IMG/VR virus record: IMGVR_UViG_3300021062_000001
DNA: 64,000 nucleotides
Direction: 5' to 3' (one strand)
Origin: a virus
The translations under genes and the position numbers were made by a program. The notes beneath the pieces were generated by a model. The model was not told where the DNA came from. It ran no database searches and worked only from the letters and a program-made list of their open reading frames with translations. This document shows, piece by piece, positions 9,580-59,670 of this stretch (position 1 is its first letter; the number at the start of each line of letters is the position of its first letter).

Positions 9580-9580
9580 G

Positions 9581-12703: not shown

Positions 12704-12765
12704 GGTTTCCCGGTCGCGCCTAACATCCCGGGCCGTCTGACGTGTCATGGTCATGGAGGACCGAG

Positions 12766-13113
12766 ATGCGACTGCTGCTCGTGGAGGATACGCCGTGCAT
12801 CGGTAGGGCGTTCCAACGCCTACTCCAGTCTCTCGGCCACGAGGTCGAGTGGGCGCAGACGTTCTCGGCCGGCGTGGCGCTGTGCAGGGAGTGCGAGTAC
12901 GACCTCGTGCTCACGGACATCGGGTTGCCGGACGGCGACGGCATGGACCTGATCCCCACCGTGGGGCGGGTCCGTGCCGTCGTCATTTCCGCCTACTCCG
13001 ACCCCGAGCGCATCGCGGCGGCCCGAGCCCTCGGCTACCTCGACTACATCGTGAAGCCGTGCGACTTCGACATGCTCAAAGCGGTCGTCGAGCGGTGTGC
13101 CCTCGCCTCTTGA
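12766..13113 (+). CDS. stand-alone response-regulator receiver (CheY-like REC) domain
   Basis: ATG 12766 after GGAGG; MRLLLVEDT, DLVLTDIGLPDGDG (phospho-acceptor Asp), VISAYS, YIVKP (Lys). Confidence 0.85.
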   Translation: MRLLLVEDTPCIGRAFQRLLQSLGHEVEWAQTFSAGVALCRECEYDLVLTDIGLPDGDGMDLIPTVGRVRAVVISAYSDPERIAAARALGYLDYIVKPCDFDMLKAVVERCALAS

Positions 13114-16349: not shown

Positions 16350-16372
16350 TCCTCAAGGAAGAGGGTATTCGC

Positions 16373-30770: not shown

Positions 30771-31120
30771 CGCTGGTCGTCAACGAGATCCAGTACGTCT
30801 ACAGCCTCTCCCCGGAGCCGGCGTACTTCTACGAGCACGTCCCGACCCGGCTGGCGTGCGGGTGCGAGGTCGGGCCGCTGCACACGGACGTCGAGCACGA
30901 CGAGGTGGGCGACGGGGAGGGCGGCGAGATCCCGATCGTCGTCTGCCCCGTGTGCCGCGAGGTCGTGGCGTTTACACTGGAGCGGCTGACGGACCAACAG
31001 TGCAAGGAGGCGCTCGATGGGGCTGGCGAGGCAACACAAGCTGGACGAGCTGCGGCGGCGGTTCAAGATGGCGGCCAAGCGGAAGCGCATGGCGGCCCGG
31101 GACACGTCCGTCTACCGTAA
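30656..31120 (+). CDS. hypothetical protein with CxC...CxxC
   Basis: LACGCEV...VCPVCREV; tail overlaps next gene. Confidence 0.55.
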   Translation: MQPQLVPADRSTVRANPHAGRTAYPIAGRPRTHQIGDMTLVVNEIQYVYSLSPEPAYFYEHVPTRLACGCEVGPLHTDVEHDEVGDGEGGEIPIVVCPVCREVVAFTLERLTDQQCKEALDGAGEATQAGRAAAAVQDGGQAEAHGGPGHVRLP

Positions 31121-31199
31121 CGCCGACGACGAGATGCGTAAGGTCGAGCAGGAGATGCGGGAGTTCTTCCGCGGGCAGAAGAAGCAAGGAGGCAAGTGA
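31017..31199 (+). CDS. small basic coiled-coil-like protein
   Basis: 60 aa; K/R/E-rich; GC3-rich. Confidence 0.55.
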   Translation: MGLARQHKLDELRRRFKMAAKRKRMAARDTSVYRNADDEMRKVEQEMREFFRGQKKQGGK

Positions 31200-33939: not shown

Positions 33940-34027
33940 GGGTAGCATTTATGGTCTCATGCGGTTTCGGGCCGCCCGCAACCCCACAGCGGCCCAGTCC
34001 AGCGTTTCGTGAAAGGAGTCACGCACC

Positions 34028-34435
34028 ATGCGGACTTTCCGTTCCCGGTTCTCGGCCCTCGTGGCCGTCGCGTTCCTGTCCTCGCTCCTGCTCGGCCTGA
34101 CCGGCTGCGGCGGGAAGAACATCAACACCGCCAACACCGGCGGCACGCTGACCGGCGTCGTCGACCGGCACGACAAGTACGTGCAGGCCGACCCCAACGT
34201 CGACCAGGCCGAGGCCCTCGCCGACTCGGCGGTGCTCAGGCAGGCGTGGCAGGCGGAAAGCGTACCGGCCAACGCGATCGAGGCCCCCTTAAACCGCGTC
34301 GCCGACCGGCACGACGGGTACGTCCAGTCGGACGGGACCCTGCCGCCCTACAAGCAACGCGCGAACCTACGCGACACCGCGATCCTGCGGGAGCTGCTGA
34401 AGGTCGGGAGGGCGACACCCGCCACCAACCCCTAA
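34028..34435 (+). CDS. lipoprotein
   Basis: MRTFRSRFSALVAVAFLSSLLLGLTGC lipobox. Confidence 0.75.
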   Translation: MRTFRSRFSALVAVAFLSSLLLGLTGCGGKNINTANTGGTLTGVVDRHDKYVQADPNVDQAEALADSAVLRQAWQAESVPANAIEAPLNRVADRHDGYVQSDGTLPPYKQRANLRDTAILRELLKVGRATPATNP

Positions 34436-34513
34436 CGGCCGTCGCCCCGTAGCGGCGGCCCGCACCGCGTCCACGGACGGACGCACGAGACGACGTGACA
34501 AGGAGGTCACCCA

Positions 34514-34837
34514 GTGCCCAACCCCGAGAACGACAACCTCAAGCAGCAGGCGACGCAGGCCCTCGTCGAGAGCCTGAACGACCTGATCGTCGGTGCCCGG
34601 TCCGACCTGCAGAACTTCGCCCAGGCGATCATCGCCGACTCGGTCGACGCGGCGGCGGCCGGCGACCAGGAGACGTTGGCCCAGCTCCGCAACCAGACGA
34701 AGTCCCTCATGGAACTGAACCGCCTCCGGGCGGTACACGGTGCCGAGCGGACGATCTTCCGGCTGGTGGGGCTGGCCCTGAACCTGGTCCTGAAGTTCGT
34801 GGTCCCGATCCCCCTCACCGGCGTCCAGCAGATCTAA
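34514..34837 (+). CDS. hypothetical protein with C-terminal hydrophobic segment
   Basis: 107 aa; GTG start after AAGGAGG; IFRLVGLALNLVLKFVVPIPL. Confidence 0.6.
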   Translation: MPNPENDNLKQQATQALVESLNDLIVGARSDLQNFAQAIIADSVDAAAAGDQETLAQLRNQTKSLMELNRLRAVHGAERTIFRLVGLALNLVLKFVVPIPLTGVQQI

Positions 34838-35302: not shown

Positions 35303-35331
35303 TGCCCTCGACGTGCAAAGGAGTGCACACC

Positions 35332-35742
35332 ATGAACCGCATCGGCTTCCTCTTCCGTTCCCTGCTCGCCCTGGTCGTCTCCCTGTTCCGCGTCTCGCGA
35401 CGGCGGTACCGGGCCGCCCGCGCGAGCTGGTTCCCCCGCCAGCGGCCCGCGAACGCCTACGCCAAGCCGCTCCAGACCTGTAAGGACATCGCCCGGATCA
35501 CGGCGACGGCGATGCGGCAGAACCGCAGCGCCAACATCGTCGTCGACGCCGGCGGGTACGTGTACGAGTCGGACGTGACCATCCCGCAGGGGAAGGGTTA
35601 CATGCCGCTCGAAGGCGTGCTCGTCGACGACTCGGCCTACTACGTCGGGGCCAAGTTCGACGTGCGGCACGACGGCCGCAAGAGCGTGGTCAACCTGGGC
35701 CGGTCTCGGCCCGCCACGCTGAAGACGCTCACCGCCGCCTGA
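35332..35742 (+). CDS. hypothetical protein with N-terminal signal-anchor
   Basis: ATG 35332 after AAGGAG; MNRIGFLFRSLLALVVSLF. Confidence 0.6.
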   Translation: MNRIGFLFRSLLALVVSLFRVSRRRYRAARASWFPRQRPANAYAKPLQTCKDIARITATAMRQNRSANIVVDAGGYVYESDVTIPQGKGYMPLEGVLVDDSAYYVGAKFDVRHDGRKSVVNLGRSRPATLKTLTAA

Positions 35743-40109: not shown

Positions 40110-40453
40110 GGTCGCGGTGGACGGGACACGCTTCGGCGGGGTATGCTAGTAGCAGGTAAGCCGTTGGCCGCGAGCGTCGGCCGGTAATGGACGGGTGGCG
40201 ATGCCAAGGATGGCGACACCACCCACGGAACGGCGTCATGGCGTGAAGGCCCGACGCCCGGTGGTGCGACGGAACGCTCAATTCGCCGTCGCAAACGGAG
40301 TCACGCTTAGCGGCGTGATACCACGGAGCCGGAAACCGACTCGGACGCGGCGGGCGAACCGCCGTGACAACCCCGAGGTGGCTGGGGAAACCGGCAGCGA
40401 GCTTACCGCAGTACAACGCACGGACGTACCCGTAGAGTCACGGAGGACTCGCC
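40110..40453 (+). ncRNA. GGA-rich structured non-coding region (candidate CsrA-titrating RNA or long CsrA-controlled leader of the 40454 gene)
   Basis: 344 nt with no credible ORF. 14 GGA, including six ACGGA. Long imperfect hairpin 40193-40224 capped by an AAGGAU hexaloop. 7-bp stem GCGACGG/CCGTCGC at 40266-40291. CGGCGG-GCGAA-CCGCCG at 40348-40364. Confidence 0.35.
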
Positions 40454-40927
40454 ATGCCCGGCCACATTCTCGCCCAGAGCCTCGACACCTGGAACCCGCT
40501 GACCGTCATCATCGCAGCGGCGGTCCTGATCTACGTCGCCTGCCAGGGGGCCGTGATGGTCATCCGCGCCCTCCGCGGCGACAAGGAGAAGACCAGCTTC
40601 GAGCAGCAGATGGGCGGCATCCTGAGCCGGCTCGGCAACGTCGAGCAGCAGACCGGGAGCATCGCCAAGGACTTCGTCCCGCCCGACGCCTTCGCCGGGA
40701 TGCTCAAAGGCCAGGTCCTCGACACGATCCTCGAAATCCAGCGGAGCCAGGACCAGCACGCGGCACTCGCGCGGCCGGTCGTCCCCCCGGCTCCGGTGGG
40801 CACCACGCAGACCACGGTCGCCGCCACGACGACCACGACGCAGCCCGTTCGGGCCGCAGCCCCCCGCCCGGCTCCAGCGCCGGGCACCGCCGTCCACACG
40901 GCGGCCGGGGCACTCGGTCAGCGATAG
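40454..40927 (+). CDS. membrane protein (one N-terminal TM)
   Basis: LTVIIAAAVLIYVACQGAVMVI; GGAGGA SD. Confidence 0.65.
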   Translation: MPGHILAQSLDTWNPLTVIIAAAVLIYVACQGAVMVIRALRGDKEKTSFEQQMGGILSRLGNVEQQTGSIAKDFVPPDAFAGMLKGQVLDTILEIQRSQDQHAALARPVVPPAPVGTTQTTVAATTTTTQPVRAAAPRPAPAPGTAVHTAAGALGQR

Positions 40928-41544: not shown

Positions 41545-42095
41545 TCGAAGTGCTCGACGGCCCCGGCTACTGGGACAGGCAGGCGTACGCCCTCGGCAGG
41601 CTCAAGGCCGCCGAGGACGACACGCCGACGCCCTCCTACAGCATGTCCGGCCTCCTGTACGTCTCCGAGGCGTCGGGGCGGCCGTGGGCGTGCCTGTCCG
41701 TGCCGAACGCCCTGGTCCGTGGCATGTTCGACGCGCTGACCGAGCCGGGGATCGAGCTGCCGATGACGGACGGGAAGCTGAACGCGCACATCAGCGTCTT
41801 CCGGCCCGAAGAGATCGAGATGCTGGGCGGACCCGAGGCACTAAAAAACGACCGAGGGAAGCCCTTTCGGTACTCCCTCGGTCGTCTGGTCGAGTTGACC
41901 CCGGCGGCTTGGGCCGACATGGCCAAGTGCTGGGTGCTTAGGGTTCATTCGCCCGAGCTGCAACAGCTGCGTCGAAGCCATGGGCTCTCGGGGCTGCCGA
42001 AGGACGGCGAGTACGACTTCCACATCACGGTGGCTGTCAGGCGGAAGGGCGTACTCGGTCGCAACGACACCGCCAAGGCTACGGACGCGGCTTAG
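41541..42095 (+). CDS. 2H phosphoesterase superfamily protein (LigT/cyclic phosphodiesterase-like)
   Basis: Two HxT/S motifs: NAHISVF and DFHITVAV; ATGA overlap with the upstream gene. Confidence 0.6.
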   Translation: MIEVLDGPGYWDRQAYALGRLKAAEDDTPTPSYSMSGLLYVSEASGRPWACLSVPNALVRGMFDALTEPGIELPMTDGKLNAHISVFRPEEIEMLGGPEALKNDRGKPFRYSLGRLVELTPAAWADMAKCWVLRVHSPELQQLRRSHGLSGLPKDGEYDFHITVAVRRKGVLGRNDTAKATDAA

Positions 42096-42583
42096 CAGGC
42101 CAGGCTAGGGGCGAAAGGGGACGGGGCCGCCTGACGGTTCTCGCGGCGGATCGCCTCGTACACTTCCTTACGGTGGACCGGGACGTCGGCCGGGGCCACG
42201 AACCCGAGCCGGACCTTGTCGCCGCGGATGTCGACGACCGTGTACTCGCAGGCCGTGGGTACCTTGTACCCCTCGCCCCTGCCGGCCGCGACCGCGTCGG
42301 CGAACTTCTGCAGCTCCGCGGGCTCCACCAGCACGATCGACTCGTCCCGCTGGCGGGAGAGGACGAGGTTGCCCCCGCCCTTGCGCTCGCGGACCGGCGG
42401 CGGCTGGTTGCCCCGGGCGATGTCCTGTAGGATCTGGACGTAGAGTTCCTTGCGGTAGACCTGGTACTGCTCCGGGGCCTTGATGCCGGTACGGACCTTG
42501 TCGCCGCGGATGTCAACGACGGTGACCTCGACGTCATCGCCGATGAGCGTGGACTCGTCTCGTTGACGGGAGAGAACGAGCAT
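42092..42583 (-). CDS. csrA: tandem (two-domain, single-chain) CsrA/RsmA-family RNA-binding protein
   Basis: MLVLSRQRDESTLIGDDVEVTVVDIRGDKVRTGIKAPEQYQVYRKELY, then NLVLSRQRDESIVL...EYTVVDIRGDKVRLGFVAPADVPVHRKEVY; AAGGAG SD on the minus strand. Confidence 0.85.
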   Translation of the reverse strand: MLVLSRQRDESTLIGDDVEVTVVDIRGDKVRTGIKAPEQYQVYRKELYVQILQDIARGNQPPPVRERKGGGNLVLSRQRDESIVLVEPAELQKFADAVAAGRGEGYKVPTACEYTVVDIRGDKVRLGFVAPADVPVHRKEVYEAIRRENRQAAPSPFAPSLAC

Positions 42584-42619
42584 GATCGACTCCTTTCGAT
42601 GCAGGAAGAATCGGGAAAA

Positions 42620-42648
42620 TTGACTTCCTGACAGCCGGTAAAGATACT
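42620..42648 (+). promoter_or_regulatory. sigma70-like promoter candidate for the 42693 gene
   Basis: TTGACT-N17-GATACT in a locally AT-rich intergenic island. Confidence 0.5.
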
Positions 42649-42672
42649 ACCCCCGAACGGGGGACGACACAA
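42644..42672 (-). promoter_or_regulatory. sigma70-like promoter candidate for csrA, GC mini-hairpin spacer
   Basis: Minus strand reads TTGTGT-N17(cgtCCCCCgttcGGGGG)-TAGTAT; its -10 overlaps the + strand -10. Confidence 0.45.
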
Positions 42673-42692: not shown

Positions 42693-44396
42693 ATGGATGG
42701 CACGACGACCGCGCAAATCTGTCTTCCGCGGGTGGAGCTGCCCCCGAGCGGACTGAACAACGCCCGCTTGGCCTTGTCGAAGCTGGGTGAGGCCCGAGCC
42801 CTCGCCGAAGAGGTGGCTTCCGCGGCTGCCGCCACGGACGTAAAACCCACCCTCGCTCAGCGTAAAGCCGGTAACTACAAGAAGGGGAAGGTCGCCATCC
42901 ATGGCCTTGTGGTCTCCGTCGAAAACCCTCGGGGCTCATACCGCGAGGGGACCGCACCGGACGGAAGCAAGTGGCGTACCAAGATGGAGCACCACTACGG
43001 CGCGATCACGGGTACGACAGGACGTGACGGCGACGCGGTCGACGTGTTCGTCGGCCCCGACCCCGACTGCGAGCTGGTGTTCGTGGTCAACCAGAACGAC
43101 CCGGCGACCGGCCGGTTCGACGAGCACAAGGTCATGCTCGGGTTCACGACCGAGGCCGACGCGCGGGCCGGGTACCTGGCCTGCTACGAGAAGGGGTGGA
43201 AGGGGCTCGGCTCGATCAAGCCGATGACCCTCGACGATTTCAAAAACCGGTTTTTGAAAGGCGACCTCACCAAGAGGGCCAAGGAAGGCGACCATGCCCG
43301 TAGCGAAGATGCCGCCGCAGAAGGTGAACCTGACCGGGAAGATCCTGCGGGGGAAGGACGGCCGCCGGCGGCAGATGGTCAGCGGCCAGCTCGTGATGCT
43401 CGACGGCCCGACGACGCCGGCGAGCAGGGCGGCGACTCCATCCTCGCCGGCCTCCCCGACGCCGCCGACCGGGAACCACCTGCTGTCGCCGCCGATGGTG
43501 ATCGCGGACGCGGACGGCCTGGCGAAGGCGGCGAGCCGGGGGCTGAAGGTGGGCGTGCTGCGGTACCCGGACGGGTCGCTGGCGGTGGTGCACGGCCTGT
43601 CGGGGAAGAACCTGCTGACGGACCGCGGCCGGATCGACATGATGGTGACGCAGGCGGGCCACGACCCGAAGCGGCTGGTGAAGTTCGGGGAGATGAAGGC
43701 GGCGGACGTGATCCGCTACCGGCGGGAGAACGCGAAGCTCGCGAACCAGCCGAGCGGGCGGATGAAGGAGGCGGACGCGGACGCTGGACCGATCTACTCG
43801 CTGGTCTCGTCGGGCCTGCTGACGAGCGAGGAGGCGATGGCGATCCTGGGGACGATCACGACGCCGACGCCGCAGACGCCGCACGGCCGGCTCCGGGCGA
43901 TGGGCTTCAAGGACGAGCTGATCGAGACGATCGTGCGGGACAGCCCGGCGTCGCCGACGATGCTGGCGTCGCCGGCGGCGGCCCCGCCGATGATCCCCAA
44001 GCCGGCCAAGGAGAGGAAGCGGCGGATCGACCAGCTCCCCGACCCAAGACCGTAGCCGTCGACCTCGACGGCACGCTCGCCGAGGAGTACGAGACGTTCG
44101 ACCCGAAGGTGATCGGCGAGCCGATGCCCGACGTCGTCGCCTGGCTCCGCAAGTTCAAGGCGACCGGGGCCGTCGTCATCATCTGGACCGTCCGCGGCGA
44201 CGACGCCCTGGTCAAGGCCTGGGCCGACAAGCACCAGATCCCGTACGACTACATCAACGAGAACCCGCACCAGCCGCCGGACAGCAGCGGCAAGCTCGTC
44301 GCCGACGTCTACCTCGACAACCGGGCGATCCGGGCGGAGGGGACGTGGGACGAGTTCGCGCCGGCGGTGCTGGAGCAACTTCAGGAGGCCGCATGA
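42693..44396 (+). CDS. open frame joining an InPase-like domain (N-terminus) and a HAD-phosphatase domain (C-terminus) through a ~260-codon off-frame-looking linker; gene structure unresolved
   Basis: N-terminus: AGNYKKGKVAIHGLVVSVENPRGSYREG...GRDGDAVDVFVGP. C-terminus: VAVDLDGTLAEE...IIWTVRGD. No stop in between and no start codon in front of the HAD part. Confidence 0.5.
   Translation: MDGTTTAQICLPRVELPPSGLNNARLALSKLGEARALAEEVASAAAATDVKPTLAQRKAGNYKKGKVAIHGLVVSVENPRGSYREGTAPDGSKWRTKMEHHYGAITGTTGRDGDAVDVFVGPDPDCELVFVVNQNDPATGRFDEHKVMLGFTTEADARAGYLACYEKGWKGLGSIKPMTLDDFKNRFLKGDLTKRAKEGDHARSEDAAAEGEPDREDPAGEGRPPAADGQRPARDARRPDDAGEQGGDSILAGLPDAADREPPAVAADGDRGRGRPGEGGEPGAEGGRAAVPGRVAGGGARPVGEEPADGPRPDRHDGDAGGPRPEAAGEVRGDEGGGRDPLPAGEREAREPAERADEGGGRGRWTDLLAGLVGPADERGGDGDPGDDHDADAADAARPAPGDGLQGRADRDDRAGQPGVADDAGVAGGGPADDPQAGQGEEAADRPAPRPKTVAVDLDGTLAEEYETFDPKVIGEPMPDVVAWLRKFKATGAVVIIWTVRGDDALVKAWADKHQIPYDYINENPHQPPDSSGKLVADVYLDNRAIRAEGTWDEFAPAVLEQLQEAA
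43236..43261 (+). promoter_or_regulatory. palindromic box copy 9 (GATTTCAAAAACCGGTTTTTGAAAGG)
   Basis: Core 43243-43254; inside ORF 42693..44396; 39 nt before ATG 43294. Confidence 0.55.
43294..44055 (+). CDS. hypothetical protein embedded in another frame of ORF 42693..44396
   Basis: AAGGAAGG SD. Very strong G at codon position 3 (GCG, CCG, ACG, CTG, GTG), unlike the GCC/GTC preference of flanking genes. Confidence 0.65.
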   Translation: MPVAKMPPQKVNLTGKILRGKDGRRRQMVSGQLVMLDGPTTPASRAATPSSPASPTPPTGNHLLSPPMVIADADGLAKAASRGLKVGVLRYPDGSLAVVHGLSGKNLLTDRGRIDMMVTQAGHDPKRLVKFGEMKAADVIRYRRENAKLANQPSGRMKEADADAGPIYSLVSSGLLTSEEAMAILGTITTPTPQTPHGRLRAMGFKDELIETIVRDSPASPTMLASPAAAPPMIPKPAKERKRRIDQLPDPRP

Positions 44397-49920: not shown

Positions 49921-49955
49921 GACGGACACGCGCGCGAAGCAAGGAGGCTTCGATC

Positions 49956-50300
49956 ATGGGACAGAAACAGCACGGCGTCGAAGGCCAGACCTCGGTCCCC
50001 CCGGGACTGCAGGCCCTTTACCGCTCGCTCAAGGAGATCAAGGACAGCGCCCAGTGCGGCGTCGACAAGCCCGAGGCCGTTACGCGGATGGTCGTGCTCG
50101 ACGCGCTCATGCTGTTCGCGAAGCTGACGGGCAGGCCGCCCCGCCTGATCCACATCCCGCCCTCGCTGGAGGCCGTGCTGCAGATCGACCGGGGCCAGAA
50201 CCTGGGCATGCCGTCCAAGACGCACGGCAAGCTCCGGGAGCACGAGCTGGTGTTCACCTGCCGCCCCGTGTGGGACGCGGCCGAGTTTCGTGTAGAATGA
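49956..50300 (+). CDS. hypothetical protein
   Basis: ATG 49956 after AAGGAGG; tail of ORF 48813..50300. Confidence 0.6.
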   Translation: MGQKQHGVEGQTSVPPGLQALYRSLKEIKDSAQCGVDKPEAVTRMVVLDALMLFAKLTGRPPRLIHIPPSLEAVLQIDRGQNLGMPSKTHGKLREHELVFTCRPVWDAAEFRVE

Positions 50301-50810: not shown

Positions 50811-51173
50811 ATGGACGCGCGTACCGCATTTAAGCAGGGCTTCATCGCCCACTGCATCGAGCTGGGACACACCGACCCGGCCGCGATCCGCGACATCGTC
50901 AAGCAGGCGTTCGTCACGGAGGCGGTCAACAAGGTCACGAACTTCGCCACCGGGGCCGGCAAGCTCGGCCTCGGGCTCGCCCTCGCCGCCCCGCCGATCG
51001 TCGGCGGCGTCGCCGGCCACCTCGCGGCCAAGGCGACCGACGTCTCGGACTACGACGTCGAGGAGGCCAAGAAGCAAGAGGTCATCGACGAGTACCGCCG
51101 CCAGGCCGAGCGCATGCGGCGGTCCGGGCTGCTGCGTCGGTACACGGCGGGCGGGCCGGGCAACCTGCTCTAA
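50811..51173 (+). CDS. hypothetical protein with central TM segment
   Basis: GKLGLGLALAAPPIVGGVAGHLAA; AAGGAGG upstream. Confidence 0.6.
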   Translation: MDARTAFKQGFIAHCIELGHTDPAAIRDIVKQAFVTEAVNKVTNFATGAGKLGLGLALAAPPIVGGVAGHLAAKATDVSDYDVEEAKKQEVIDEYRRQAERMRRSGLLRRYTAGGPGNLL

Positions 51174-52500: not shown

Positions 52501-55500
52501 ATGGGCCGCCTCGGATCTGGCATCAACATCATGGGGGATTCGGACCTCGGCATCATGGACGCGATGCCGGGGTTCGTCTCCGCGCCCATGCAGCTGCAGG
52601 CCCCGAAGCCCGTCGAGGAGGTCGAGGCCGAGCCCGAGGGGCTGCGGGCGTTCGGCGACGTGGACGCGACCCGCAAGGCGATCTACGACTCCGTGTTCGA
52701 GGCCGCCTCGAAGATGGAGCCGACGAAGAACCAGAAGCACACGCTCCGGCTGACCGGCGTGCAGTGGCAGGACCCGGACAAGTTCACGATCCGCCAGCGG
52801 AAGGAGGCCCTGCTGCGGGGCGAGACGCTCGGCCGCCGGCTCAAGGGCACCTGGGAGCTGCTCGACAACGCGACGAACCAGGTGATCGACCGCCGCGAGC
52901 AGACCGTGCTCCGCGTCCCGCACCTGACCGGGGGCGGCACGTTCGTCCACAACGGAAGCGACTACGCGCTGGGCAACCAGCAGCGGCTCCGCTCGGGCAT
53001 CTTCGCCCGCGTGAAGGACAACGGCGAGTACGAGTCGCACGTCAACGTGCTGGAGGGCGGCCCCTCGCACAAGATCCAGCTGAACCCGGAGAAGGGCGTC
53101 TTCTACGTCAACATCGGGCAGGCGAACATCCCGCTGCTGCCGCTGCTGCAGACGCTCGGGGCGAGCGAGAAGGACCTCCGCGCGGCGTGGGGCGACGACC
53201 TGTACGCCCGGAACTACCAGAAGGCGGACGGGACGGCGATGGCGAAGATCGTCGCCAAGTTCCTGAAGAAGCCGCCGGTCGACGGCACGAGCACGGCCGA
53301 CGCCCTCCGCCAGACGTTCGAGAACATGCGGCTCGACCCCGAGGTCACCAAGCGGACGCTCGGCCAGCCGTACGACCGCCTGGGCAAGGACGCGCTGGTC
53401 GCCGCGACCGCCAAGCTCCTGCGGGTCCACCGCAAGGAGGAGGAGCCGGACGACCGCGACCACCTCGCGTACCAGACGTTCCTCGGCCCCGAGGACCTGT
53501 TCGCCGAGCGGCTCCGCAAGGACCGCGCCGGCGTCCGCCGCAACATGCTCTTCAAGATCAGCGGCAAGGGCAGCCTGCGGGCGATGGGCTCCAGCCCGCT
53601 GCAGGACCAGATCGACTCGGCGATCATGTCGTCGGGGCTCGGCCAGGCCCTCGAAGAGATCAACCCGGCGGAGATCCTCGACAAGAACACGAAGATCAGC
53701 CGGATGGGCGAGGGCGGCATCCCGAGCTACGACGCGGTCCCCGACGAGGCCCGCGCCGTGCAGCCGTCGCACTTCGGGTTCATGGACCCGCTCCGCACCC
53801 CGGAGAGCTTCAAGGCCGGCGTGGACGTGTTCCTGAGCGGCAACGTCCGCAAGGGCCGCGACGGGAAGCTGTACGGCCGGTTCGTCGACGCCCGCACCGG
53901 CAAGCCGGCGTGGAAGACGCCGCAGGAGGTCGCGGACGCCGTCGTCACGTTCCCGGGGGCCGACAAGCTCCCGTACAAGCGCATCCCCGCGATGAAGAAC
54001 GGGCGGATGGGCTGGGCGACCCGCGAGGAGGTCGGCCTGGTGCTGCCGACGATGGAGCACGCGTTCAGCCCGATCGACAACCTGATCCCGCTCAAGAGCC
54101 AGCTCAAGGGCCAGCGGGCCAGCATGGCGAGCCGGATGACCACCCAGGCCCTGCCGCTGGTCGGCGCTGAGGCCCCGCTGGTGCAGAGCGGCCTGCCCGG
54201 CTCCAAGGGCGAGCGGAGCTACGAGGAGGAGTACGCGAAGCACATGGGGGCCGTCGTCGCCGACCGCGGCGGCAAGGTCCTGGCCGTGACGCCGGACGCG
54301 ATGACGGTGAAGTACGACGACGGCAAGGTCGACACGATCGAGCTGTACAACAACTTCCCCTACAACCGCAAGACGGGCATCACGCAGACGCCGACCGTCA
54401 AGCCCGGCCAGCGGTTCGAGGCCAAGCAGCCGATCGCCCGGTCGAACTTCACGGACGACAAGGGGGCCGCCGCGCTGGGGCTCAACGCCCGCGTCGCGTA
54501 CATGCCGTGGGGCGGCCAGAACTTCGAGGACGCGATCGTCATCAGCGAGGGCATGGCCAAGCGGATGACGTCCGAGCACATGTACCAGAACGGGCTGGAG
54601 GTGAACGACCGCACGAAGGTCGGCCGCAAGGAGTTCATCTCGCTCTTCCCGTCGAAGTACGACAAGGCCACGCTGGCGAAGCTCGACGATAAGGGCCTCA
54701 TCAAGCCCGGCACCCAGGTCCACTTCGGCGACCCGCTGATCCTCGCCGCCGAGGAGCGGAGCACGGCCCAGAACAAGATCCACAAGAAGGGCACGCCCGC
54801 GTTCAACGACGTGTCCGTCACCTGGGACCACCACGACCCCGGCATCGTCACCGACGTCGTCGAGGGCAAGAACGGCCCGGTCGTCCTGGTGAAGAGCCAG
54901 CACCCGATGCAGGTCGGCGACAAGATGAGCGGGCGGTACGGCGACAAGGGCGTCGTCAGCGCGATCATCCCGGACGACCAGATGCCGCACGACAAGGACG
55001 GCAAGCCGTTCGAGGTGCTGCTGAACGACCTGGGCGTCATCAGCCGGACGAACCCGAGCCAGTGGGCCGAGGCCAAGCTCGGGGCGATCGCCGCCAAGCT
55101 GGGCAAGGCGATGAAGGTCGAGGACTTCGACCCGGCGGTCGAGGACCGCGCGGCGTGGGTCGAGGAGCAGATGCGGAAGCACGGCATCCCCGACCAGGAG
55201 GACGTGACCGACCCGGTGCGGGGGACGAAGATCCCGGGCATCTCGACCGGCAACCGCTTCTTCATGAAGCTCCACCACACGGCCGAGTCCAAGGGGCAGG
55301 GCCGCGGGTCGGGCGCGTACGCCTCGGACGACACGCCGGCCAAGGGCGGCGAGACGGGCAGCAAGCGGAACTCGCTGCTGAACGTGAACGCCCTGCTCTC
55401 GCACGGGGCGACCGACTACCTGCAGGACGTCGGGGCGATCAGCGGCCAGCGGAACGAGGACTACTGGCTCCAGTTCATGCAGGGGTTCTCGCCCCGCAAG

Positions 55501-57006
55501 CCGAAGGTCCCGCTCGTGTACGAGAAGTTCGTCAACGAGCTGAAGGGGGCCGGGATCAACGTCGTCCGCGAGGGCAGCCAGCTCCACGTCATGGCGCTGA
55601 CGGACAAGGACGTCGACCACCTGGCCGGCGACCGCGAGATCGAGGTCGGCGACACGGTCGACTTCTACAACGAGCTGAAGCCCGTGAAGGGCGGCCTGTT
55701 CGACAAGACGAAGACCGGCGGCCACCACGGCAACCGGTGGGCGGCGATCAAGCTCGCGGAGCCGATGCCGAACCCGGTCATGGAGGAGCCGATCCGCCGC
55801 GTGCTCGGGCTGACGCAGAAGCGGTTCGAGGACGTGATCGCCGGCCGCGAGCCGCTGAACCCGCAGACCGGGGCGACCGGCCCGCGGGCGATCGCCGAGG
55901 CCCTGAAGACGATGAACGTCGACCGGGAGATCGCGATCGCCCGGGCGAAGATCCAGAACGGCACGAAGGCCGAGCGGGACATGGCCGTGCGGAAGCTCGG
56001 CTACCTCAAGAGCGCGAAGAAGACGGGCGTCCTGCCGGGCGACTGGGTGCTGAACCGCGCCCCGGTCCTGCCGCCGCAGTTCCGCCCCGTGAACGTGATG
56101 GGCGGGAAGAACGTACCGCTCGTCGCGGACGCGAACTTCCTCTACAAGGAGCTGTTCGAGGCGAACAAGAACCTCCGCGACATGAGCGAGCAGGTGGGCG
56201 ACGACGTCGGCGACGAGCGGCTGGCGGTGTACCACGCGTTCAAGGCGGTCACGGGCCTCGGCGAGCCGATCACGCAGAAGAGCCAGGAGAAACAGGTCAA
56301 GGGAATCCTAAAATCGGTTTTTGGATCTTCGCCGAAGTTCGGCACCGTGCAGCGGAAGCTGATCGGCTCCACGGTCGACAACGTCGGCCGGGGCGTCGTC
56401 GTCCCGAACCCGGACCTCGACATGGACAGCGTCGGGCTCCCGGAGGACCGGGCGTTCGACGTCTACAGCCGGTTCGTCGTCCGCCGCCTCCGCCGCTCGG
56501 GCATGCCGATGGCCCAGGCCCTGCGGCACGTCAAGGACAAGAGCCCGCTGGCCCGGAAAGTGCTGGTCGAGGAGATGGACCACCGGCCGGTGGTCGTCAA
56601 CCGCGCCCCGGTGCTCCACCGGTTCGGCATCATGGCGTTCCGCCCCAAGCTCGTGAAGGGCTCGGTGCTGCACGTCCCGCCGCTGATCGTGAAGGGCTTC
56701 GGCATGGACTTCGACGGCGACGCGGTGCAGTACCACGTCCCGACGAGCGAGGACGCCCGGGCCGAGGCCCTCGACCGGATGCTGCCCAGCCGGCAGCTGC
56801 TGAGCCCCGGCGACTTCAAAAGCCCCGTGCACGTCCCGGGGCAGGAGTACGTCGGCGGGCTGTACAAGGCGACGAGCGGCCGCAGCAAGCGGCCGGTCCG
56901 CTACTTCCGCAGCGCCAAGGACGTCCGCCACGCCTGGGAGCACGGTGAGGTCGCGATCGACGACGTCATCAAGGTCCTGGGCGACGCGGTCGCGGCGAAG
57001 CGGTAG
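52501..57006 (+). CDS. multisubunit RNA polymerase: beta-like subunit fused to the N-terminal (RpoC1-like) half of beta'
   Basis: Beta motifs: RAVQPSHFGFMDPLRTPES, GQNFEDAIVISE, GDKMSGRYGDKGVVS, FFMKLHHTAESK. Beta' motifs: NRAPVLHRFGIMAF and catalytic MDFDGDAVQYHVP. Confidence 0.9.
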   Translation: MGRLGSGINIMGDSDLGIMDAMPGFVSAPMQLQAPKPVEEVEAEPEGLRAFGDVDATRKAIYDSVFEAASKMEPTKNQKHTLRLTGVQWQDPDKFTIRQRKEALLRGETLGRRLKGTWELLDNATNQVIDRREQTVLRVPHLTGGGTFVHNGSDYALGNQQRLRSGIFARVKDNGEYESHVNVLEGGPSHKIQLNPEKGVFYVNIGQANIPLLPLLQTLGASEKDLRAAWGDDLYARNYQKADGTAMAKIVAKFLKKPPVDGTSTADALRQTFENMRLDPEVTKRTLGQPYDRLGKDALVAATAKLLRVHRKEEEPDDRDHLAYQTFLGPEDLFAERLRKDRAGVRRNMLFKISGKGSLRAMGSSPLQDQIDSAIMSSGLGQALEEINPAEILDKNTKISRMGEGGIPSYDAVPDEARAVQPSHFGFMDPLRTPESFKAGVDVFLSGNVRKGRDGKLYGRFVDARTGKPAWKTPQEVADAVVTFPGADKLPYKRIPAMKNGRMGWATREEVGLVLPTMEHAFSPIDNLIPLKSQLKGQRASMASRMTTQALPLVGAEAPLVQSGLPGSKGERSYEEEYAKHMGAVVADRGGKVLAVTPDAMTVKYDDGKVDTIELYNNFPYNRKTGITQTPTVKPGQRFEAKQPIARSNFTDDKGAAALGLNARVAYMPWGGQNFEDAIVISEGMAKRMTSEHMYQNGLEVNDRTKVGRKEFISLFPSKYDKATLAKLDDKGLIKPGTQVHFGDPLILAAEERSTAQNKIHKKGTPAFNDVSVTWDHHDPGIVTDVVEGKNGPVVLVKSQHPMQVGDKMSGRYGDKGVVSAIIPDDQMPHDKDGKPFEVLLNDLGVISRTNPSQWAEAKLGAIAAKLGKAMKVEDFDPAVEDRAAWVEEQMRKHGIPDQEDVTDPVRGTKIPGISTGNRFFMKLHHTAESKGQGRGSGAYASDDTPAKGGETGSKRNSLLNVNALLSHGATDYLQDVGAISGQRNEDYWLQFMQGFSPRKPKVPLVYEKFVNELKGAGINVVREGSQLHVMALTDKDVDHLAGDREIEVGDTVDFYNELKPVKGGLFDKTKTGGHHGNRWAAIKLAEPMPNPVMEEPIRRVLGLTQKRFEDVIAGREPLNPQTGATGPRAIAEALKTMNVDREIAIARAKIQNGTKAERDMAVRKLGYLKSAKKTGVLPGDWVLNRAPVLPPQFRPVNVMGGKNVPLVADANFLYKELFEANKNLRDMSEQVGDDVGDERLAVYHAFKAVTGLGEPITQKSQEKQVKGILKSVFGSSPKFGTVQRKLIGSTVDNVGRGVVVPNPDLDMDSVGLPEDRAFDVYSRFVVRRLRRSGMPMAQALRHVKDKSPLARKVLVEEMDHRPVVVNRAPVLHRFGIMAFRPKLVKGSVLHVPPLIVKGFGMDFDGDAVQYHVPTSEDARAEALDRMLPSRQLLSPGDFKSPVHVPGQEYVGGLYKATSGRSKRPVRYFRSAKDVRHAWEHGEVAIDDVIKVLGDAVAAKR
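56304..56328 (+). promoter_or_regulatory. palindromic box copy 11, variant, inside the RNAP ORF (AATCCTAAAATCGGTTTTTGGATCT)
   Basis: AT-rich island in a GC-rich gene; nearly identical to copy 3; encodes ILKSVFGSS. Confidence 0.45.
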
Positions 57007-57026
57007 CGTCAAGGAGGACGCGCACC

Positions 57027-57341
57027 ATGGAACTGATCGCTCGACCACTGAAGTTCGGCGGGCCGAAGCTGCGGCGGGTCGCCCAGGCCGCCCGGGACCG
57101 CAGCGGGCGGCTGGCGGTGAACACCCCGATGCTCCACCTGATCGAGGCGTGCTACGCCGGCGGCCCCGACGACGTGCGGCTGGGCGTGGAGCACTACCAC
57201 GACCCGCTGCTCGACGGGCTGTACGCCGACCCCGTGGCCGTCGCGGTGACCGCCGACCGCTCGCTCGTCGGGCCGGGTCACCCGGACGACCAGTACCGAG
57301 GCATCCCGCCGGAGCGGGCCGCCTGTATCCTGTTCTCCTGA
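57027..57341 (+). CDS. hypothetical protein
   Basis: 104 aa; AAGGAGGA upstream. Confidence 0.6.
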   Translation: MELIARPLKFGGPKLRRVAQAARDRSGRLAVNTPMLHLIEACYAGGPDDVRLGVEHYHDPLLDGLYADPVAVAVTADRSLVGPGHPDDQYRGIPPERAACILFS

Positions 57342-57435
57342 CCGCCGCAGCGCACGGGGCTGGCGGCGGACCCGGTAGTTGTTACACTAACGGGTGAGCA
57401 CGCAAGGAAGCACTCAACACGCAAGGACGCGACCT

Positions 57436-58203
57436 ATGTCGAAGCACCTCGTCAACCCCCAGCTCCTCGGAATGGCGTACCAGAGCGTCGCCGGGTCGCT
57501 GGCCAAGCACGCCGCCGCACCGCAGCCCGTCGCGCGGTCGTTCAACCTGATGGACCCGAACGGGTACGACAAGGCAGCCTTCGTGCCGGCCGGCGACCCG
57601 AGCATGGACCCCGCGGCGGCGGCCGGCGGCGGCGCTCCCCCGCCCCCGGGTGGCGACCCTGCGGCCGGCGGCGGCGGTGCTCCCCCGGCCCCACCGGCGG
57701 CCCCGCCGGTCGACCCGAACATGATCGCCCAGCAGGTGCTGTCGATGATCCAGTCGCAGGGCGGCGGGATGGGCGGCGGCGGGGGCATGGGCGGCGTCGA
57801 GCCGATCAAGCCGAAGATCGACGTCAACGTCGAGATGCTCCAGATCAAGAAGATGCTCGCCAAGATCTGCGACACGCTCGGCATCGTCATCCCCGCGAGC
57901 GACATGGCCGTCACCAGCCAGGACCTGACCCAGATGGCCCAGCAGCAGGGCCAGGCGGGCGGGGCCGGCGGCGGTGCCCCGCAGCAGAGCGCGATCGCCC
58001 CGATCTCCCCGATGCAGCCGGCCGCGCCGGGCATGGGCGGGGGCGGCGACGCCGGCGGCGGCATGGGCGGCGGGCCGAAGATGGCCAGCGCCAAGCAGGC
58101 CGCGGTCAACAACGGCCGCGGGTTCAGCACCGAGGGCCTCGGCAACCTGACCAACAAGGCGGCCGCGATCGCTCAGCTCCGCAGCCGCCGCCGGGCGGGG
58201 TAA
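57436..58203 (+). CDS. hypothetical protein with Gly/Met/Pro-rich low-complexity blocks
   Basis: ATG 57436 (ORF from GTG 57394); QGGGMGGGGGMGG, GMGGGGDAGGGMGGG. Confidence 0.6.
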   Translation: MSKHLVNPQLLGMAYQSVAGSLAKHAAAPQPVARSFNLMDPNGYDKAAFVPAGDPSMDPAAAAGGGAPPPPGGDPAAGGGGAPPAPPAAPPVDPNMIAQQVLSMIQSQGGGMGGGGGMGGVEPIKPKIDVNVEMLQIKKMLAKICDTLGIVIPASDMAVTSQDLTQMAQQQGQAGGAGGGAPQQSAIAPISPMQPAAPGMGGGGDAGGGMGGGPKMASAKQAAVNNGRGFSTEGLGNLTNKAAAIAQLRSRRRAG

Positions 58204-58212
58204 GCAGCGACC

Positions 58213-58491
58213 ATGTTCGTCGAGATCCTGTCCAAGTTCGGGGGCGAGCCGATCCGCATCGAGGCGGCCCAGCTCGTCGTGCGTAACGACTCCGGCACGC
58301 CCGTGATGGTGGCGGGGGAGTACGGCCCGAACAGCACGATCCGCGTCTCGCACGGCGCGGACGAAGACTTCAACCAGTCGCTCAGGGCCTTCGGCTACGG
58401 TCAGGAGACCGTGGTCATGGAGACCGTGAGCACCAGCAACACGCCGATCCCGGCCGGTGCCCGCCGCGTTGGCGGCCCGTTTGGTCGGTGA
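58213..58491 (+). CDS. hypothetical protein
   Basis: 92 aa ORF. Confidence 0.55.
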   Translation: MFVEILSKFGGEPIRIEAAQLVVRNDSGTPVMVAGEYGPNSTIRVSHGADEDFNQSLRAFGYGQETVVMETVSTSNTPIPAGARRVGGPFGR

Positions 58492-58519
58492 CACCCCGTT
58501 CTCCGAAGGAGACACCCCG

Positions 58520-59536
58520 ATGGCAGCGAACGAAAGCTCGAACAAGGCCTACTACGGCAGCGGCCAGAAGTCCGTCATCAACAACAAGAACCCCCTGTAC
58601 CGCACGGGCAACGTCAACGACCCGCTCCAGGCCAACGCCTCCCCCGTCCACGTCGCCGGCGACACCTCGACCGACCAGTATTACAAGAACGGCGGCTCGA
58701 AGATGCAGCGGCGGGCGGCCGAGCCCGCGAAGTTCATCCCGGTCGACCCCCGCGCCGACTCCAAGGCCCGCCCGGCCGCCGGTGCCGCGTACACGACGCC
58801 GCTGGAGGGCGACCTCCGCCGGCCGCTGCTGGTGAAGGAGGGCCACCCCGCCGCGATCCGCGCCGCCGTCGCCCGCATCGTCGAGCTGCTGCTCGGCGGC
58901 ACGAGCCCGGTAATCGTCCACGTCGCCGACGTCGGCTTCGAGCCGGACATCCGCACGGGCCTCGACATCCGCGTCGCCCGCGAGGAGATCTCCCGCGACC
59001 AGTACCGCGACGTCCAGTTCTCCCTGGCCCCGAAGACCGGCACCGAGCTGGCCGACCAGACGTTCGGCGCGATCGACCCGGCGAGCCTGCCCGAGGTCAA
59101 GGTCGGCGAGGACCCCGAGGACGCGATCCCCGACGACATCGAGGCGTTCGTCAAGGGCAACACCGACGCGGACGACGTCGCCCCGGCCGCCCCCGAGGCG
59201 AGCCGCGTCCAGACGATCTCCGCCCCGGCCGCCCCGGCCGAGGACAACGACGACACGGACGACGACGTGACCAACACGCAGGGCTCGGACGGCCCGCAGG
59301 GTCCGGCCGGCGTCGCCGACGAGGCCCCGGTCGGCAACGTCCCCCGTCCCGAGGCCGTCAAGGCGGCCCCCGAGGCGAGCAACGAGGAGCCGGCGATCTC
59401 CACGACCGCCCCGGCGGCCGCCGACACCGACGACGAGGCCGAGACGGCCGACGAGCCGGCGGCCACGGGCGACGCCGCCCCCGCCGCCGCCGCCGACGCA
59501 CCGGCGACCGGCAAGAAGGGCCGCAACCGCCGCTGA
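58520..59536 (+). CDS. hypothetical protein with acidic disordered C-terminal half
   Basis: ATG 58520 after AAGGAG; 338 aa. Confidence 0.65.
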   Translation: MAANESSNKAYYGSGQKSVINNKNPLYRTGNVNDPLQANASPVHVAGDTSTDQYYKNGGSKMQRRAAEPAKFIPVDPRADSKARPAAGAAYTTPLEGDLRRPLLVKEGHPAAIRAAVARIVELLLGGTSPVIVHVADVGFEPDIRTGLDIRVAREEISRDQYRDVQFSLAPKTGTELADQTFGAIDPASLPEVKVGEDPEDAIPDDIEAFVKGNTDADDVAPAAPEASRVQTISAPAAPAEDNDDTDDDVTNTQGSDGPQGPAGVADEAPVGNVPRPEAVKAAPEASNEEPAISTTAPAAADTDDEAETADEPAATGDAAPAAAADAPATGKKGRNRR

Positions 59537-59560
59537 TCCTGACAGTCCGCACGCGACGAC

Positions 59561-59606
59561 GACGCACCCCGCGGACCGGCCTCGGCTGGCTACCACGGGG
59601 TGCGTC
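59561..59606 (+). terminator. terminator-like hairpin (no clear T-tract)
   Basis: 11-bp stem GACGCACCCCG / CGGGGTGCGTC with a 24-nt loop. Confidence 0.45.
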
Positions 59607-59613
59607 GTGTTAA

Positions 59614-59638
59614 GATCCAAAAACCGGTTTTGAGAAGC
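59614..59638 (+). promoter_or_regulatory. palindromic box copy 12 (GATCCAAAAACCGGTTTTGAGAAGC)
   Basis: Core 59620-59631; after a hairpin; 39 nt before GTG 59671. Confidence 0.6.
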
Positions 59639-59670
59639 CACGGACGGCGACACACAAGGCACGGAGGCCT

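Follow-up and report, generated by a model that had tools for sequence, protein, structure and literature searches.

CsrA, one of the best-studied bacterial translational regulators, works as a symmetric homodimer that uses its two identical faces to bridge paired GGA sites, and separating these faces has required engineered heterodimers. What, then, does a gene do that joins two CsrA domains in a single chain and resides in a virus? Such a gene lies on the minus strand at 42092-42583 of a 64,000-nucleotide (nt) stretch of viral DNA (IMG/VR record IMGVR_UViG_3300021062_000001; the window hereafter), with an ATG start and a product of 163 amino acids (aa) followed by a stop codon. We consider it rather probable that this product is an intramolecular CsrA pseudo-dimer and that, through a presumed binding to RNA, it represses translation from its own mRNA, from a set of phage genes and probably from host flagellin mRNA too. 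A natural pseudo-dimer of covalently joined halves, in which selection acts on each face separately, would be a ready-made system for dissecting the roles of the faces. Operators readable in the sequence would also provide concrete candidate targets in a jumbo phage for which hardly any gene has an assigned function. What csrA genes do in phages has scarcely been tested, one knock-down phenotype having been published in 2025. The locus also suggests a way for a virus to copy the flagellin operator of its host while shielding its own regulator from host subunits and from their antagonist.

Two CsrA domains in one chain

The Pfam CsrA model (PF02599) matches the protein in two stretches with E=2.9e-35 and 120.4 bits (cut-off 27), and the NCBIfam CsrA equivalogs TIGR00202 and NF002469 do so with 123.7 and 119 bits (cut-offs 73 and 70.1), again in two stretches each. 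Domain limits were taken from a local profile hidden Markov model (HMM) built on six single-domain CsrAs, which assigns residues 1-53 to copy 1 and residues 73-85 and 108-153 to copy 2, with a gap corresponding to a 22-residue insertion (residues 86-107) at the beta2-beta3 turn of copy 2. The two CsrA folds that a preliminary description of this DNA had recognised by eye were thus recovered as non-overlapping domain matches with Pfam, NCBIfam and the local HMM. Its start of copy 2 at about residue 83 has to be moved to residue 72-73, and the insertion it had placed after beta2 of copy 2, quoted there as about 26 aa, is located by the HMM as the 22 residues above.

Copy 1 (42425-42583, minus strand, as are all parts of the gene) has the beta1 segment MLVLSR, a canonical GDD turn between beta2 and beta3 and a variant beta5, YQVYRKELY, and aligns without gaps to residues 1-52 of RsmA/CsrA. 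The end of helix 1 and the linker follow (residues 54-72; 42368-42424); here residue 55, just past copy 1, is Ile, where CsrAs partnered with FliW have Asn, and a Gly-rich hinge, RKGGGN, stands just before beta1'. A Gly-rich stretch ahead of beta1' is also found in other tandem CsrAs. The N-terminal part of copy 2 (residues 73-85; 42329-42367; HMM positions 2-14) includes beta1' LVLSR and beta2', the insertion in the beta2'-beta3' turn (42263-42328) contains a predicted helix at residues 88-99, and the C-terminal part (residues 108-153; 42125-42262; HMM positions 14-59) covers beta3' to beta5' and helix 2, with a canonical VPVHRKEVY and with REN in helix 2, by which the equivalent of Asn55 is retained. 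A BLASTP comparison of the two copies gave 42% identity with a 23-residue gap (E=4e-14), and 60% of residues are identical across 52 core columns. The duplication reported earlier as visible in the DNA is exact, two bases away from the positions then quoted: the 15-mer GTCGCCGCGGATGTC occurs exactly twice, at 42218-42232 and 42500-42514, and shuffles expect none. Both copies contain the RNA-binding residues L2, L4, R6, R44 and E46 (MLVLSR...YRKE; NLVLSR...HRKE), so the alignments agree with the earlier remark that both keep the LVLSR of beta1 and the Arg of beta5. Across 28 tandem proteins, the Arg and Glu of beta5 do not vary in either copy (R44 and E46 in copy 1, R138 and E140 in copy 2).

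Orthologues with 50-59% identity are encoded in syntenic positions on four further contigs: L002, L003/L004, L088 (IMG/VR, 104 kb) and L234. Each is one open reading frame (ORF), convergent with a 2H-SAK gene and on the strand opposite to most or all of its neighbours. For a comparison of the halves, six clade proteins were used, namely those of five phage contigs (the window included) and P0015 of unknown context. In copy 1 of this clade the GDD turn is canonical, being three residues longer in P0015; beta5 reads [YW/I]-x-[VI]-Y-R-[KS]-E-[LI]-Y in five of the six, with Tyr in place of His43, which P0002 retains; and Asn55 is lost in all six, with Ile, Leu or Met instead. In copy 2, beta5 is canonical or nearly so and Arg44 is retained, and the beta2-beta3 loop is 5 to about 26 residues longer, always exceeding the canonical GDD turn without being conserved in length. 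Asn55 of copy 2 (REN) is kept in the window protein and P0004 and lost in the other four. Since the asymmetry is common to the clade, the duplication is older than the divergence of these phages. Its conservation across six orthologues suggests that the two halves evolved under different constraints, and lends support to the idea of two non-equivalent faces put forward in the preliminary description.

The structure of the whole chain was predicted by AlphaFold2 with an alignment of the 28 tandem proteins, and one compact body was obtained with a mean predicted local distance difference test score (pLDDT) of 92.9 and a predicted template-modelling score (pTM) of 0.81. In copy 1, strands were predicted at residues 2-5, 11-14, 18-26, 29-35 and 41-44 and a helix at 45-56; in the linker, the helix continues to residue 56 and is followed by coil at 57-70 (pLDDT of this block, 81); and in copy 2, strands were predicted at 71-76, 82-86, 112-120, 123-129 and 136-138 and helices at 88-99 and 139-152, the former being the helix of the insertion with pLDDT above 90. 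Each half therefore has the complete order of beta1 to beta5 plus alpha, and the structure prediction that had been proposed as a check on the two CsrA folds returned a confident compact fold and not the refuting outcome. In line with a CsrA fold, Foldseek superposed one CsrA-length stretch of the model (51-54 aligned columns) on chains from interleaved CsrA dimers with a template-modelling score (TM) of 0.77-0.80 and a root-mean-square deviation of 2.3 Å. A CsrA chain in its open, swapped conformation has no core of its own. Because the single-chain model is nevertheless confident and compact, the two halves should complete each other, and the model is best read as an interleaved intramolecular pseudo-dimer. 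Unlike the members of the CsrA/RsmA family, which are homodimers of identical subunits, the protein is one chain with two non-identical domains.

Hairpin loops at gene starts

Upstream of the csrA ATG, where GAAAGGAG is located, the Shine-Dalgarno (SD) GGA is held in the hexaloop of a hairpin with a 5-bp stem, AUCGA-AAGGAG-UCGAU (42585-42600, minus strand), which ends one base before the AUG. The 16-mer ATCGA-AAGGAG-TCGAT is 100% identical in the five phage contigs, whose guanine-plus-cytosine (GC) content ranges from 0.57 to 0.70. ANGGA(N) in the hexaloop of a hairpin has been characterised structurally as the module that RsmE and RsmN recognise (PMC3791407), and we propose that the csrA leader hairpin is an autoregulatory CsrA operator. 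A self-leader of this type (stem of at least 5 bp) precedes one of 77 viral csrA genes, which is the tandem one, and four of 80 cellular ones; with these frequencies, a self-operator as a general property of csrA genes was ruled out.

Hairpins of the same form are found on other genes of the window. ANGGAN hexaloops on stems of at least 5 bp precede ten further gene starts, all on the plus strand: gaccc-AAGGAC-gggtt (632-647) before gene 652-1377; tggtc-ATGGAG-gaccg (12748-12763) before the CheY-like receiver gene 12766-13113 (Pfam Response_reg, E=4.3e-18); tcctc-AAGGAA-gaggg (16350-16365) before gene 16373-17410; agtgc-AAGGAG-gcgct (30999-31014) before gene 31017-31199; cgtga-AAGGAG-tcacg (34008-34023) before gene 34028-34435, whose L002 orthologue has tgtga-AAGGAG-tcacg; two hairpins 27 nt apart, gcgtcc-ACGGAC-ggacgc and then, over the SD, gtgac-AAGGAG-gtcac (34467-34510), before gene 34514-34837; gtgca-AAGGAG-tgcac (35313-35328) before gene 35332-35742; GAGUC-ACGGAG-GACUC (40435-40450) before the small membrane-protein gene 40454-40927; cgaagc-AAGGAG-gcttcg (49935-49952) before gene 49956-50300; and gcgtc-AAGGAG-gacgc (57006-57021) before gene 57027-57341. 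In total, SD hexaloops precede 11-13 genes other than csrA if 5-bp stems are required and about 18 if 4-bp stems are admitted, the latter list adding the tubulin gene, the beta'-type polymerase gene and others. Among the hairpin-bearing genes, only the CheY-like receiver and a DUF3008 protein were recognised with Pfam and PHROGs, and gene 49956-50300 had no match.

The small membrane-protein gene, two or three genes away from csrA, has the hexaloop hairpin in all five phages on five different stems (cagtc/gactg in L002, tcgtca/tgatga in L003, ggtca/tgacc in L088 and cagtca/tgactg in L234), so that in the orthologous leaders the stems vary and the loop is retained. SD hexaloops are enriched at gene starts relative to other NNGGAN sites under a deliberately loose definition of starts (Fisher p=3.8e-5), and in a control in which 3' flanks were swapped, a mean of 0.74 and a maximum of 5 were obtained in 2000 trials, against 10 observed. 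Their density is 13 per 64 kb in the window and 1.5-2.4 per 10 kb in the four sister contigs, compared with 5 in 738 kb (0.07 per 10 kb; 0.06 for the GC-rich ones) in 79 IMG/VR loci with a single-domain CsrA. The density in the tandem-CsrA phages is thus about 25-fold higher.

A similar operator is present in the probable host group. Single-domain CsrAs sharing 73-79% identity with one half of the phage protein belong to Phycisphaerae and other Planctomycetota, which points to this lineage as the likely host. In a Phycisphaeraceae genome (L168), the csrA most like the phage halves sits in the order flgK-flgL-fliW-csrA-flagellin, and the adjacent flagellin gene starts with GACAATC-AAGGAG-GATTGTC-AUG. 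The flagellin SD is placed in a CAATC-ANGGAG-GATTG hairpin in 43 of 80 csrA loci of Phycisphaerae and other Planctomycetota (L008-L087). Its stem covaries, double changes having been found in 24 cells against 8.6 expected (none of 500 shuffles was as high, and slid controls were also exceeded), in sequences gathered with a hairpin filter. Within the cellular loci, these hairpins cluster on flagellin, csrA and fliW genes, which matches the expectation for a CsrA operator in a FliW-type system; no description of this flagellin/csrA/fliW hairpin was found in the literature searched. The forms seen on some cellular csrA and fliW genes are gttgg-AAGGAG-ccaac and acgaa-ACGGAG-ttcgt, respectively.

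Two further elements lie upstream of the csrA leader hairpin on the minus strand. The block AGGAAGUCAA (42620-42629), conserved in the window, L002, L003 and L234, contains a GGA 35 nt upstream of that in the SD, which may be a second site. A sigma-70-like promoter candidate (42644-42672) consists of TTGTGT, 17 nt including the palindrome CCCCCGTTCGGGGG, and TAGTAT, and its equivalents read TTGCTT-N17-TAGCAT in L002, TTGACT-N16-TATCAT in L088 and TTGCTG...TATAGTAT in L234. The element TTCGG(N0-2)GGGTA..T has two matches in the window against 0.03 expected, one at csrA and one at 40132-40147 on the plus strand (TTCGGCGGGGTATGCT), a second promoter-like element of the csrA type with a TATGCT conserved in L002.

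In L003, a 152-aa ORF (9549-10007) is located between the conserved leader hairpin and csrA, so that the hairpin there precedes the extra ORF. It shows an HNH-like HH...HH motif by eye and had no Pfam match, and may be a homing-endonuclease insertion.

Proposed mechanism and its alternatives

From the model and the sequences we infer a mechanism whose parts are an interleaved fold, RNA binding, repression, insulation from host CsrA and FliW, and early expression. csrA would be expressed early from the sigma-70-like promoter. The two domains of this natural single-chain CsrA, connected by a linker of about 15-20 residues, would fold onto each other as an interleaved beta-sandwich, resulting in one monomeric protein with two RNA-binding faces, each composed of beta1 of one copy and beta5 and the helix of the other. 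In the face with beta5 of copy 1, Tyr40, Tyr43 and Leu47 would take the places of the canonical Val, His and Ile or Val, and the face with beta5 of copy 2 would be canonical; for ligand RNAs such as AUCGAAAGGAGUCGAU and GAGUCACGGAGGACUC, one hairpin per face would be expected. By binding ANGGAG hexaloop hairpins that hold the SD, the protein would block ribosome binding on its own mRNA (autoregulation), on at least 11-13 other phage mRNAs in the window and, because the operator type is the same, probably on host flagellin mRNA. With its subunits fused, the phage protein would not form mixed dimers with the host CsrA, a close relative, and its two faces would be free to diverge; Asn55 of copy 1, a determinant of FliW docking, has been lost. 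Asn55 is required for FliW binding in Bacillus subtilis (bioRxiv 10.1101/2020.07.02.184341), and its loss in copy 1 fits a partial escape from FliW. Of the two roles suggested in the preliminary description, timing of the element's own expression is favoured here, since CsrA-type operators sit on phage genes, and rewiring of the host is plausible, given the same operator type on flagellin beside fliW-csrA.

The main competitor of this autoregulated repressor is a protein directed at the host only, which would mainly repress host mRNAs for flagellin, motility and carbon metabolism. The SD hairpins of the phage would then be unrelated to it and would serve host CsrA or act as translation or stability elements. 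CsrA homologues of mobile elements are generally thought to act on the host, as with plasmid RsmQ (PMC9928087) and in the discussion of PMC11879866, and flagellin genes of the likely host group carry a perfect operator. Set against this are the invariance of the leader operator of csrA itself in five phages, the 25-fold difference in hexaloop density from other csrA-carrying viral loci, and the restriction of the cellular hairpin mainly to flagellin, csrA and fliW, by which it is not a general feature; we regard a purely host-directed role as unlikely, yet as the alternative with the strongest case. A function as FliW decoy, in which the main job would be to bind host FliW through copy 2 and so free host CsrA to shut down flagellin, with RNA binding secondary, appears very improbable. 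REN is kept in copy 2 of the window protein and P0004 and the likely host lineage uses fliW-csrA (PMC4682653), but Asn55 of copy 2 is itself lost in four of the six clade proteins, R44, L2, L4 and R6 are kept on both RNA-binding faces in all of them, and the conservation of an operator on the csrA mRNA speaks in favour of RNA binding.

Two other alternatives concern the chain itself. Closure might not be intramolecular: copy 1 could pair with copy 2 of another chain, giving domain-swapped dimers or chains with at least four faces, or the halves could pair with host CsrA. A monomer prediction is compatible with such oligomers, and proteins with about four CsrA repeats (P0163, P0176 and P0182) show that higher-order arrangements have evolved; we give this possibility little weight, because the single chain was predicted with a pTM of 0.81 and a confidently placed linker of 14 or more residues, and the recurrence of Gly-rich hinges before beta1' in tandem CsrAs is what intramolecular closure predicts. 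That two adjacent csrA genes were fused by an assembly or sequencing error, or that one is a decaying duplicate, has practically no probability left. No observation in its favour was found apart from the source being a metagenome assembly, and the same uninterrupted architecture recurs in five phage contigs that differ in sample and assembler, is shared by dozens of further clusters, and has its key residues conserved in both halves; a fusion artefact was ruled out by the ORF shared among the five independent contigs.

The proposed repressor also has to be weighed against several observations that speak against it, in whole or in part. The strand pairing between the halves is deduced from the compactness of the model. 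The Foldseek superposition is uninformative on interleaving, since the program compares chain by chain and about one CsrA-length stretch aligns. The enrichment of SD hairpins is limited to one phage clade, so that phylogeny and CsrA architecture are confounded, and these hairpins might be read by host CsrA or another factor, or might stabilise the RNA. The apparent pairing is inflated because the hairpin sets were gathered with a hairpin filter. The upstream block reads AUCGAAGUCAA in L088, without GGA; since L088 keeps GAAGTCAA without GGA, the second leader GGA was ruled out as a universal site. The promoter candidate was not reported by a consensus promoter scanner, and its call depends on the resemblance of its hexamers. 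As for FliW, the window protein retains Asn in copy 2, and in B. subtilis one FliW per CsrA dimer is enough for inhibition (bioRxiv 10.1101/2020.07.02.184341), so that an escape from FliW is a possibility at most.

A wider proposal takes in a structured RNA near csrA. A conserved structured leader RNA of about 300 nt (40150-40434, within the region 40110-40453, plus strand) lies upstream of the small membrane-protein gene 40454, with counterparts at 12363-12720 of L002 and 8362-8700 of L234 (both minus strand). Of its 88 predicted pairs, 24 are compensatory among the window, L002 and L234. It contains one of the hairpins listed in the preliminary description, of 14 bp with an invariant CCAAGGAUGG loop (about 40193-40224). 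The region has the highest ANGGA density in the window (8 against a mean of 1.5 per 347 nt); one invariant AAGGAU loop has a covarying stem, and most ACGGA motifs are paired or not conserved in L002. Rfam gave no match for the region, and an IMG/VR search with a 28-mer from it found nothing. This RNA could be a multi-site CsrA leader, a sponge of the CsrB/RsmZ type or an unrelated RNA. It is possible, if on balance doubtful, that the phage has a self-contained Csr-like circuit, composed of an asymmetric CsrA that exchanges no subunits with the host's and has lost one of its FliW docking sites, flagellin-type operators on at least a dozen phage genes and on its own mRNA, and the 300-nt GGA-loop leader, which would share the promoter type of csrA and would buffer or sense the regulator. 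If so, it would be, to our knowledge, the first phage-encoded global translational regulon built on CsrA, and a natural construct for the separate study of CsrA's two RNA-binding faces.

Relatives and genomic setting

A profile of tandem proteins was compared with 1.84 billion representative sequences, and 47,599 CsrA-family clusters were detected, of which 77 had E<=1e-30; nearly all of the top 90 or so span both domains. Tandem CsrA is thus rare but recurrent, with about 80-100 clusters (50% identity) or about 0.2% of the family, some of them cellular, and the search for other tandem CsrAs that the preliminary description had called for showed the architecture to be unique neither to this gene nor to viruses. 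In GenBank, the CsrA matches of 81 phage records are all single-domain. At least 318 stretches in IMG/VR encode CsrA relatives, and among the best 80 loci, which were examined, one is tandem, L088 of the same clade. Surveys cover single-domain csrA genes of phages and plasmids (PMC7366521), and the knock-down of one phage csrA led to smaller plaques (PMC11879866). No description of a tandem, single-chain or pseudo-dimer CsrA was found in the open-access literature searched, and sources naming tandem proteins call them just "carbon storage regulator". The parts are those of an ordinary CsrA, and what makes the protein of interest is the conserved asymmetry together with a visible operator set on phage genes.

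The canonical CsrA/RsmA/RsmE homodimer (Escherichia coli CsrA, Pseudomonas RsmA and RsmE; PDB 1Y00, 1VPZ and 2JPP) belongs to the same Pfam family and shares the order beta1 to beta5 plus alpha and the key residues, and by analogy the same ligand, an ANGGA hairpin loop overlapping the SD, is expected for the phage protein. The homodimer is composed of two identical chains of about 60-70 aa, whereas the phage protein is one 163-aa chain with unlike faces and a 22-residue insertion in one half, in which subunit exchange is presumably impossible. With the FliW-CsrA-flagellin switch of B. subtilis and Phycisphaerae, the phage operators share the ANGGAG-hexaloop form of the flagellin SD hairpin on different stems; unlike that system, the phage csrA has no adjoining fliW or flagellin gene, its copy 1 has no Asn55, and its putative operators are on phage genes of unknown function. 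Single-domain CsrAs on mobile elements (the RsmM type of Pseudomonas phages, plasmid RsmQ and gp28 of phage PTXU04) are likewise CsrAs in a mobile context, and the single-domain viral loci differ in having no set of genes with SD hexaloops.

RsmN/RsmF of Pseudomonas aeruginosa (PDB 4KJI and 4K59) has a helix between beta2 and beta3, as does the phage protein in copy 2 only. RsmN has no C-terminal helix, and with the insert in both subunits its chain is re-routed to a non-swapped dimer (PMC3791407); the phage protein keeps both C-terminal helices, has a canonical turn in copy 1, and its insert is variable in length among orthologues. The Foldseek match to RsmN/RsmF is weak (TM 0.42-0.45). An RsmN-like re-routing of copy 2 was rejected by inference, since the canonical turn of copy 1 forces beta2' beside beta3' and the C-terminal helix is present. 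Among cellular tandem CsrAs, P0003 (192 aa, on an 854-kb contig between uvrB and uvrA) has two domains and a Gly-rich hinge as in the phage protein. In the cellular tandems, however, the copies are canonical and near-identical (85% in P0003), both have Asn55, and neither the beta2-beta3 insertion nor the Tyr changes of beta5 are present; their near-identity indicates separate, recent duplications. In its working principle the proposal resembles phage T4 RegA, which represses early mRNAs and its own mRNA by binding translation initiation regions, with the difference that RegA recognises sequence around the AUG and not a GGA hairpin loop. We know of no sequence or fold relationship between RegA and the CsrA-type phage protein.

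The gene contents of the window point to a very divergent jumbo phage. A tubulin/FtsZ-family protein, a ribonucleotide reductase and a topoisomerase-family protein are encoded, the tubulin/FtsZ-family gene being directly followed by the stand-alone CheY-like receiver gene (11432-13113). A 1501-aa RNA polymerase combines beta (Rpb2) domains with a beta' (Rpb1) N-terminal domain in one chain, and a separate 918-aa protein has a further beta'-type (Rpb1) domain (polymerase region within 52501-62427). Most large ORFs had no match in Pfam and PHROGs. A protein identical to the csrA product (P0001) is encoded on a 224-kb metagenome contig, the jumbo-phage contig to which the window belongs.

The GC contents of csrA at the first, second and third codon positions (GC1, GC2 and GC3) are 0.70, 0.41 and 0.86. 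Other minus-strand ORFs with high GC3 each lie inside a plus-strand ORF, and nearly all have GC1 and GC2 like non-coding sequence; the exception, ORF 42936-43715, antisense to the InPase gene, has a junk-like translation. Under this heuristic csrA is the only convincing minus-strand gene of the window, and in public gene calls for the 20 kb around it all other genes are on the opposite strand, so that its earlier designation as the sole minus-strand gene stands by both measures. Three minus-strand tRNA calls by ARAGORN (17822-17906, 34292-34380 and 50921-51000; 80-89 nt) are all within plus-strand coding ORFs and are probably false positives in GC-rich sequence.

The neighbours of csrA are a convergent 2H-SAK phosphoesterase gene and a divergent gene with an InPase domain. 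The convergent ends of csrA and the 2H-SAK gene share 4 nt across their stop codons (42092-42095), as they do in L002 and L234. This overlap provides no space for a terminator, so that transcripts from the opposite strands must be mutually antisense, which might serve to switch off csrA under high plus-strand transcription. The divergent gene (42693-44396, plus strand) is a 567-aa ORF with an N-terminal InPase domain (E=1e-55) and a HAD-like C-terminus (VDLDGTL...), in frame with each other in the window phage and L002; its InPase part was missed by public gene callers. The middle 255 codons have 35% conservation and GC3 like non-coding sequence, and are spanned in another frame by a 253-aa ORF (43294-44055, plus strand). 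The GC3 of this ORF is 0.97, it shares 47% identity with its counterpart in L002, and it has an SD and an upstream palindrome of its own. The pattern suggests overprinting of a gene onto the stretch that links the two domains of the InPase/HAD protein.

An AT-rich palindrome, CAAAAACCGGTTTTTG, occurs at 12 sites (4687, 11397, 16331, 21144, 24625, 29859, 34916, 39176, 43242, 50326, 56309 and 59619), with 22 strand hits at three or fewer mismatches where 0.02 would be expected. At least seven of them are found 25-55 nt ahead of a plus-strand gene start, and that at 56309 is within the RNA polymerase gene; the palindrome looks like a phage-specific promoter or operator. It was not found at csrA. 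Because the promoter element of csrA and 40454 is unique to them while CAAAAACCGGTTTTTG marks a dozen other intergenic regions, the csrA and 40454 transcription units may form a separate temporal class, possibly early genes of the host polymerase.

The exact 18-mer leader ATCGAAAGGAGTCGATCA gave 63 hits in metagenomes (L171-L233), mostly hairpins on unrelated genes; the scan recovered the L088-type phage as the only tandem csrA, and no new clade members. Several unrelated gene families follow this leader, each on several contigs, including a MNISMNSMIANTLFG... protein (on low-GC contigs) and a MHRKDAIAWVVSVC... protein, and a divergent 67-aa CsrA-like ORF (L182) also carries it. These leaders may be chance matches or CsrA targets in other bacteria. 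Among the metagenome proteins, P0163, P0176 and P0182 have about four degenerate CsrA repeats per chain, and P0146, P0166 and P0138 are tandem CsrAs with extra C-terminal regions, one of which has a pentapeptide-repeat-like stretch by eye.

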